DNA from: Mobula hypostoma
Taxonomy: Eukaryota
NCBI RefSeq assembly: GCF_963921235.1
Contig: NC_086097.1
Coordinates: 74,774,001-74,838,000, forward strand
DNA: 64,000 nt
Direction: 5' to 3'
The notes beneath the pieces were generated by a model that was not told the DNA's origin, searched no databases, and worked only from the letters and a program-made list of their open reading frames with translations. Made by a program: the position numbers and the translations under genes. How positions within the stretch are numbered: the first letter of the stretch is position 1; each line of letters starts with the position of its first letter. Shown here in pieces: positions 19,545-22,086 of the stretch.

Positions 19545-19640
<96 letters not shown>

Positions 19641-19905: not shown

Positions 19906-20016
19906 CAGCAGGCCGAATTCCCATATGTTGCTGACCATCCAATACAAAGCTTCCCATTGGCTGGCCCTCTGGACTGTATGCTGCTCCTTGGCTTACTGAA
20001 GGATCAAGAAGAAAAC
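19906..20016 (-). CDS. MEIS2: MEIS2 coding exon with two alternative acceptors (111 bp from 20016, or 90 bp from 19995)
   Basis: caatcag|GTTTTCTTCTTGATCCTTCAG|TAAGCCAAGG...CCTGCTG|gtaagc gives (GFLLDPS)[30 protein letters not shown]. The optional GFLLDPS insert is characteristic of MEIS2 rather than MEIS1. Confidence 0.95.
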
Positions 20017-22027
20017 CTGATTGTAGTCAAACGTAGACACAGAGGAGAAAGAAAAGACATACCAAACAATCAGCAGTTACTCCTGAAACAGCAAACACAA
20101 TACGTTGTCGCACAAAAAAACATGAATGGAATTAAAGAAATAAATTAAGCCATCAACCATTACCCCACAACCCAGCATCTCTCCAGATTTGAACATTCTT
20201 AGCAACTCAAAGGTGCAACTTTATATTGCAAAGGTATAAACAACGGTAGCTCCTCTCCTCAATGCCTAGAAGATCTGGGAACTTATTTTGTCCAAGGGTA
20301 AGATTTTTCCCCTGCTTGTGCTGTCAATGCCTCTTAAATTAAAGATTACTAAATCAGGCATTGTGCCCTGATTGTCCCCTGATAATTAACTGTGACTATT
20401 GTCTACACCTTCTTTAATTGCACTCTAAGTATGAAGACATCCAGCCTAACATTTAGTGGATTTATTCAATCAATACCATCAAATTACATAAAACTAAGAA
20501 TAGTGTTATGAATAGTACGCAATTTATGATGATTAAAAATAAATTAAACAGACAGTTCCTTAAATCTCTAACTTATTAAATGCATGCTGTAGTACGGCTT
20601 TGACATTTATAGCCCAGATTGATAGGATCAGTGATTTTCACAGCAAAATGGAAGGCCACTCAGCCCATTATGCCTAAGGCAGCTCCATACCCCTACACCT
20701 ACAGCTGTTCAATTCTTCTTTTTACACTCAAAACTGTAGCTTGTGGTGAGTTCCCTCACCTCAGCCAAGGAAGGAACATTAAAAATAGTTTTCCCGGGTT
20801 TGGGAACAGGAGGGAAAAATTGGGAAAAAAAGCATCCAAGCCTACCCGTCCTAGCTTCTTTCCAATAATCTGTTCTTGAGTGTATGTGTGTGTTGATTTT
20901 GGGTAATGATAGCATTGGGTTTGACTGCGATGCCTCTCACGCATGAAGAAACTTGGGGAAGGTACTCAGAAGGCACCTGTGGATCCAAATCCCAGTTAGA
21001 GTCAGTGCCTTCCAGAGTGAGAGAGGAAAACTTTCTCCACACCATCTTGAATTTACTGAGTTTTGTCATGCAGCTTTGAGGTTAACTCTTACTCCCCTGA
21101 CAAATAAAACCAAATTTCTTTCTCGCTGTCAAAGAAATTCAGACTTTAGCCCCTGCCCATCCTATCCTGTTCACAGCACAATAACAATTCTGATCCCCAA
21201 GAAGTACATTTGACAAGTTGTACACAATTCACAGAAATAAGAAGCACTTTACATATTGAAGTAAAGCAGCGGGTGTAAATCAACATCAAATCAAAGCAGT
21301 GTGAGTGACAATAAAAGACTTCAATAAAGCTTCCGGCAATGCAGAAGCACACAACTCCATGGTCTGCACAACATGCTTACAGACTTAAATTTGTATGTGA
21401 GCCAAATTAAAACGAGTGATTTGACTGAAATTAAACATTCTTACCAGAAAGATTAAAAAAATAAAGAAAATAATTTATACTGGTTAATGAGGGACTATAT
21501 TTTCTTCTCCTCGTCAAATAGTGTATGAAAGGGAACACTATTTGATACTCAGGCTTGTATTTTATTTTAGAATTATTAACCAGGGTATTGTGTTTCAGTT
21601 TATTTTAACCACAATCATTTTAAAGGATACATAGCTATAATTAACAGTAAAATAAACAGCAGCAGGGGCATAATAACAGTGCATTTTCCCAGGAGTTGTG
21701 AGCAGTAAGGAAAAGCACCAGTGGCTGAGAGAGACAACCAGTGATTTTGCAGCAATAGCACCCACTCAGCAAACTATTTGTGGTGCAAGTATATTTGCCC
21801 AATTACCATCATTAACAAGAAATCAAAGCAGCTTTGGGAAAGTGAGGGTGGAAATTCCAGTTGGTATCAGTTAGTGAGGTTTCCCCCTGCACTGGAATTC
21901 TGGGTTGTTAGCTCTCCCAGAATGCCTGGCTGCTGGGTTTATTTACCAGGTGAAGGAACTCCTGATGAATAACTTGATGAAGATTTGTGCCTGCGGGACT
22001 TGAATACAGTAACTACTTGAGACTTGC

Positions 22028-22086
22028 CTGCTCGATTTGACTGGTCGATCATGGGTTGTACTATTCTTCTCCTGGCATTAATGAAC
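22028..22086 (-). CDS. MEIS2: MEIS2 coding exon (59 bp), homeodomain helix 3 / C-terminal end
   Basis: gtttgtcttag|GTTCATTAATGCCAGG...AATCGAGCAG|gcaagt gives (W)FINARRRIVQPMIDQSNRA. Phase matches the upstream exon (TG+G = Trp). The donor is GC, not GT. Confidence 0.97.

Follow-up and report, generated by a model that had tools for sequence, protein, structure and literature searches.

The 81-nt segment that directly follows the end of homeodomain helix 3 in the MEIS2 gene of Mobula hypostoma is the segment that Irimia et al. 2011 (PMC3140891) named Meis “exon 10-prime.” We consider it very probable that this segment is an ancient stretch of coding sequence lying between a GC and a GT donor and that it serves here as a rarely used option, which would add a 27-residue linker, predicted to be disordered, after the MEIS2 homeodomain. 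The feature as such has already been described, and what is added here is modest: an intact copy in Meis2, from a lineage that had not been sampled, a coding-type pattern of substitution between paralogs, and arguments from the sequence against a branch ending in polyadenylation. The genome keeps exon 10-prime intact in both Meis1 and Meis2, which makes rays and sharks a good place to measure its inclusion and to test the motif it encodes. The puzzle on which such measurements bear is that, according to the main text of PMC3140891, a segment conserved from cnidarians is nonetheless rarely included and often lost in vertebrates.

The window analyzed, a stretch of 64,000 nt, carries the gene on the minus strand, and all features given below lie on that strand. 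The constitutive exon 10 (22028..22086; 59 nt) encodes the end of helix 3 and runs directly into exon 10-prime (21947..22027; 81 nt, 27 codons), the product of which is basic and then rich in Ser and Pro. The upstream donor, CAG/GCAAGT (22020..22030, with intron position +1 at 22027), and the downstream donor, CTG/GTAAAT (21939..21949, with +1 at 21946), are in the same phase, and the 81 nt between them are open in frame. Reading on past the GT donor yields two more residues and then a TAA stop (21941-21939), which falls inside an AATAAA hexamer (21938..21943). The original prediction had given these donors, their 81-nt spacing, their shared phase, and the TAA within AATAAA, and all of its coordinates hold. 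At the other end of intron 10, the acceptors at 20016 and 19995 open, respectively, exon 11-prime (19996..20016), an alternative acceptor extension of 21 nt (7 aa) that has already been reported for Meis2 in the text of PMC3140891, and exon 11 (19906..19995), 30 residues of which were compared with Meis2 proteins. Each acceptor gives an open product with either donor, so that four in-frame joins are possible. The long intron 9 (~33.2 kb) precedes exons 10 and 10-prime, the short intron 10 (2011 nt) follows them, and intron 11 measures 302 nt; the sizes of Meis introns 9-12 in Table 1 of PMC3140891 fit the flanking introns found here. Exons 12a and 12b, at 19603 and ~17292, are both present and open, and the known C-terminal switch is thus intact.

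Donor strength was taken as the number of matches to the U1 consensus over 11 positions. By this measure the GC donor, which had been called weak, has 9/11 matches against 8/11 for the GT donor, which is mismatched at +5, and is therefore not the weaker of the two. The upstream GC donor is likely to be the major donor and the downstream GT donor the minor one.

We assign the gene to MEIS2 on the basis of the Meis2-type sequence of its exons 11 and 11-prime; over exon 11, 30/30 residues are identical to 10 Meis2 records, compared with 22-24/30 for 8 Meis1 records. Two other paralogs are present in the 3.48-Gb genome, Meis1 (locus L002) and a Meis3-like gene. In exon 10, the Meis1 paralog encodes the same residues in 19/19 codons (dN 0). 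Both L002 and a further Meis1 locus, L004, which is teleost-like and was named by peptide resemblance, have the same GC first donor and the same 9-nt second donor at +81. In the Meis3-like paralog the first donor is GT and a segment homologous to 10-prime is missing, in agreement with what the main text of PMC3140891 states for all Meis3. Intron 10 of the Meis1 paralog spans ~28 kb (G000:C22:71699170-71727160), as against 2 kb in the present Meis2; Table 1 of PMC3140891 lists 1.1-1.8 kb for the orthologous introns of human, mouse, chicken, and fugu Meis1.1.

In the main text of PMC3140891, exon 10-prime is described as arising from an alternative 5' splice site of the tenth exon, with an upstream donor that is GC in 46% of the genes studied. 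Non-bilaterians are reported there to have a single exon and nematodes to include 10-prime constantly, while amphioxus and hemichordates include it substantially and vertebrates very little; it is excluded in 27/27 human and 6/6 mouse ESTs, and RT-PCR was carried out on it in other vertebrates. The same text counts at least nine losses, among them all Meis3, records for Meis2 a loss in zebrafish, Xenopus, and mammals and an interrupted 10-prime in chicken, describes an intermediate donor at 42 nt in hemichordates, and leaves the “mode of function” of the segment open. The equation of our segment with the alignment of their Fig. 1C is indirect, being based on the 42-nt hemichordate donor and the loss in Meis3, both of which match the wording of the paper. 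Among our records, the hemichordate isoform P0089 falls short of P0008 by 14 residues (42 nt), the same difference as in the text of PMC3140891, and this ties the published segment to the present one. The two are also alike in the GC upstream donor, in the coding meaning, and in the pairing with the 21-nt extension of exon 11; they differ in that the sampling described in that text includes no cartilaginous fish, in one of which we find 10-prime intact in Meis2. The guess that the extension might be conserved and previously reported was right. Its direction has to be reversed, since no exon was extended into an intron; an ancestral stretch of coding sequence turned into an option in bilaterians.

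The main text of PMC3140891 contains neither the word “shark” nor any mention of polyadenylation. A search of titles and abstract openings found no paper on the function of 10-prime or on Meis splicing in sharks, and the literature search found none on a GC-AG alternative splice site in Meis2. The portion of PMC5630039 at hand treats a different Meis2 event, and the main text of PMC13379096, a study of mouse Meis1 by long reads, has no occurrence of exon 10, intron 10, retention, splice site, or polyadenyl.

A protein search with exon 10 plus the extension as query returned 202 matches. The figures that follow refer to the best 120 of the 202 and, as these were chosen by similarity to the query, the counts overstate general conservation. 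The nearest of the named proteins come from rays and sharks, as would be expected if the locus is that of a cartilaginous fish. The helix-3 motif is present in 119/120 of the matches listed, and among these 119 the core columns are kept by 116 (V6), 113 (V8), 108 (F9), and 110 (K10). The peptide following the homeodomain is retained in corals, sea anemones, Hydra, nematodes, a tardigrade, molluscs, hemichordates, and vertebrate Meis1 and Meis2, the last two being the genes in which the original prediction had suggested looking for it. Over the first 16 residues, 14/16 are identical to the Saccoglossus, tardigrade, and Nematostella records and 12/16 to those of Hydra and Trichinella. In five coral-type genomic loci the position of the first donor reads GA and the frame runs on, indicating that there is no intron at this point; by sequence comparison, exon 10-prime is thus homologous to sequence within one continuous exon in cnidarians. 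Across 58 distinct genomic loci, the segment is kept with GC (3) or with the non-donor GA (5) and absent with GT (49) or GC (1), an association that amounts to a trend rather than a test because many of the loci are related; the three vertebrate loci that keep 10-prime all have GC at the first donor. In a metagenome scan, from which 80 of 159 loci were kept, L004 was the only vertebrate-type locus with 10-prime, and the scan yielded no DNA of a Meis2 ortholog.

Use of the segment as an insert is indicated by 29/120 of the listed matches, all of them named vertebrate proteins, in which the 27 residues are spliced to exon 11. A thirtieth candidate, P0077, turned out on inspection to match by chance and is not counted. 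Three ray Meis2 records are identical to the present peptide (27/27) and are joined to both acceptors; together with the published 10-prime, they support the normal splice and the +27-aa insert that had been predicted. Elsewhere, identity is 24-25/27 in sharks (two), 21 in sturgeon, 23/27 in a turtle and two birds, and 17/27 in wolf, and exon 11 stays at 30/30 in the same Meis2 records in which 10-prime varies. The Meis2a isoforms of rays and sharks in RefSeq/UniRef (XP_059811702.1, XP_059811711.1, XP_051880896.1, and XP_043553936.1) have the same 27-residue insert with either acceptor (27/27 in rays, 25/27 in bamboo shark), all as annotation models. Within the shark and ray cluster 1, 3 of the 15 members listed carry the insert and 12 are without it, and ray isoforms that are identical but for the insert exist as annotation. 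Several Meis2-type records, namely P0044 (wolf), P0016, P0023, and P0027, keep the 27-codon length and the open frame with a drifting peptide; for mammalian Meis2, “degenerating” may be a better description than lost, given the still open frame in wolf.

The substitutions within the segment follow a coding-type pattern in the comparison of the two paralogs. Between Meis2 and the Meis1 paralog L002, dN is 0.159 and dS 0.651 (dN/dS ~0.24; Fisher one-sided p=0.0037), third positions hold 10/18 of the mismatches, and the +1 frame has stops. Identity to L002 per 27-nt bin is 18-24/27 inside 10-prime and 4-9/27 just past the second donor. Against L004, dN/dS is 0.50 and not significant (p=0.18), and L002 and L004 compared with each other give 0.57; codon-level conservation, which the original prediction had proposed as a check, is significant in the comparison with L002 and not significant in that with L004. 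Both pairs tested have a smaller dS in 10-prime than in exon 10 (0.65 vs 1.50; 0.54 vs 0.80), and some of the constraint may therefore lie at the RNA or DNA level.

This lowered dS would also suit an alternative that we regard as improbable, namely, that the segment is a vestige at the DNA level, with the protein option almost never made and the sequence conserved mainly as splicing enhancers for the GC donor or as a cis-regulatory element. The main text of PMC3140891 describes vertebrates as including 10-prime very little and losing it repeatedly, which is in line with such a vestige, as is wolf Meis2, which keeps the length and the donor while its peptide drifts to 17/27. The third-position bias and the ratio of 0.24 relative to the paralog speak against it, as does the match of the peptide to cnidarian and nematode sequence, in which it is constitutive. 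The flanking intron has evidence on both sides: a 16-nt stretch of intron that L002 and L004 share beyond the second donor would favor a regulatory element, whereas the present Meis2 has no significant match to either Meis1 locus in the intron past the second donor (139-830 of 1000 shuffles were as good).

The 16-nt match is exact, lies downstream of the second donor of L002 and L004, at ~30 and 50 nt, and was equaled in 1/1000 shuffles within 100 nt and in 19/1000 within 300 nt. It is a candidate splicing or cis-regulatory element and was not found as such in Meis2 of the present locus. An ACTAAC hexamer occurs at 21878-21873, ~70 nt beyond the second donor; it resembles a QKI or branch-point motif and is a possible regulator of donor choice, such a hexamer being expected at times by chance.

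We favor the reading in which exon 10-prime is a seldom-used coding option, and propose that it might operate as follows. The two in-phase donors and two acceptors could give rise to four in-frame mRNAs, among which the GC donor would win most of the time, with low inclusion as the outcome, as published for other vertebrates. The GC in place of GT would soften the first donor enough for the second to compete; the Gly at this position is encoded with either GC or GT, and the protein sequence thus does not require the GC, which may be what lets the second donor compete. The minor isoform from the GT donor would be longer by 27 residues, placed between helix 3 and the activation region. Their conserved hydrophobic-then-basic core and Ser-Pro tail might constitute a short linear motif that tunes the downstream activation region, for which an extra contact with DNA or importin and kinase sites are candidate actions; the NLS suggested in the original prediction is likewise a candidate role.

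A motif of this kind fits with the predicted disorder of the insert: in an AlphaFold2 prediction from a 60-sequence alignment, pLDDT stays <50 over 10-prime and no secondary structure forms there (P0126 residues 365-397, an identical segment). On the same prediction we rejected the idea that the homeodomain fold continues into the insert. None of the 19 matches among solved MEIS structures reaches beyond the residue preceding 10-prime. The R-[RK]-x-[ST] motif, a PKA-type site, is present in 88/119 relatives among the matches listed and absent from the present peptide, making a PKA-type role less likely for this Meis2 and weakening, for this copy, the idea of a phosphorylation patch.

The AATAAA over the stop codon had been taken as a sign of a third outcome, a truncated MEIS2 produced through intronic polyadenylation. 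On this account, U1 bound at the second donor would cover the hexamer and, when the donor is free, cleavage would give a MEIS2 ending two residues past 10-prime that would retain DNA binding and be without the activation region. We think it quite unlikely. The overlap of hexamer, donor, and stop is real, and the stop is common to the Meis1 paralog; from the sequence, the hexamer is nonetheless likely a by-product of the donor. At +6 and +7 the second donor has T and A, which pair with U1 and in frame read TA-N, which is a stop or Tyr. The TAA would hence arise because the donor keeps these two bases, and AATAAA needs one further A, which is missing in L002 (with a stop after 10-prime) and L004 (with Tyr there), both Meis1-type. 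The hexamer is present in 1/3 of the vertebrate loci with DNA that keep 10-prime. Among the 120 matches listed, 9 end at the stop, which would favor truncation, and 7 read Tyr or Trp instead, a mixture that would follow if the donor were constrained just to T at +6 and to A or G at +7. Of the 9, 8 are ORFs without a name or an assigned homeodomain family, lie on short contigs, and were likely called through unspliced sequence.

The surroundings of the hexamer are likewise poor for cleavage. Poly(A) sites characteristically have a U/GU-rich downstream element and an upstream UGUA. The minus strand of the window has 69 AATAAA hexamers, 4 of them within the 2011-nt intron 10, which makes the presence of one by itself nothing unusual, and the one at 21938 is near the lowest of the 69 in its downstream U fraction (0.15; 4/69 at or below) and in downstream GU/UG/UU steps (5; 5/69 at or below), with no TGTA within 60 nt upstream. 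Neither its conservation across the three loci compared nor this U-poor context supports the truncated product. Retention of intron 10 would place the stop upstream of later exon junctions and would likely lead to nonsense-mediated decay rather than to protein.

Gating of intronic polyadenylation by U1 is known as telescripting. The present arrangement, known from sequence alone, is like it in having a poly(A) hexamer near a 5' splice site and differs in that the paralog does not share the hexamer, downstream of which there is no U/GU-rich element. The main text of PMC3140891 reports that Meis has repeatedly been truncated at the C terminus, by other routes. The truncated MEIS isoforms in the portions of PMC3140891, PMC13379096, and PMC3157405 at hand, with exon 12a inclusion or without a homeodomain, also change or remove the C-terminal region, but through cassette exons or loss of the homeodomain and not through cleavage in intron 10. 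The literature search found no paper supporting the switch, nor one on MEIS1 intronic polyadenylation that gives a truncated, homeodomain-bearing protein. In three teleost Meis1 models (P0079, P0159, and P0161), the frame continues past the second donor and terminates within intron 10; though annotation models, these are the best lead to a real truncated form. In its widest version, the proposal would be that cartilaginous-fish-like Meis2 has a U1-gated switch, which either splices in the ancestral motif or cleaves to a dominant negative with an intact homeodomain and no activation region, with the teleost read-through models representing the same outcome in another lineage. We regard it as a long shot.

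There is next to no likelihood that the segment is a chance open frame with a cryptic donor in an ordinary intron: an open 27-codon frame is by itself common (23.6% of 20,000 random intron-9 positions), but an open frame that ends, within 30-150 nt, at an in-phase GT donor with at least 8/11 U1 matches is found at 0.23% of 20,000 positions, and chance is refuted by the homology across animals and the end of paralog conservation at the donor, besides the RT-PCR in other vertebrates in the main text of PMC3140891.

A few further records deserve mention. In three Meis2a models of Mobula birostris (P0019, P0151, and P0153), the frame shifts inside 10-prime and stays out of frame through exon 11, which reflects either an indel carried by M. 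birostris or a mistake in the assembly. The Narcine record P0155 ends early within 10-prime. A metagenome contig, L014, has two tandem copies of exon 10 ~140 nt apart, each with an acceptor and a donor, possibly a pair of mutually exclusive exons.
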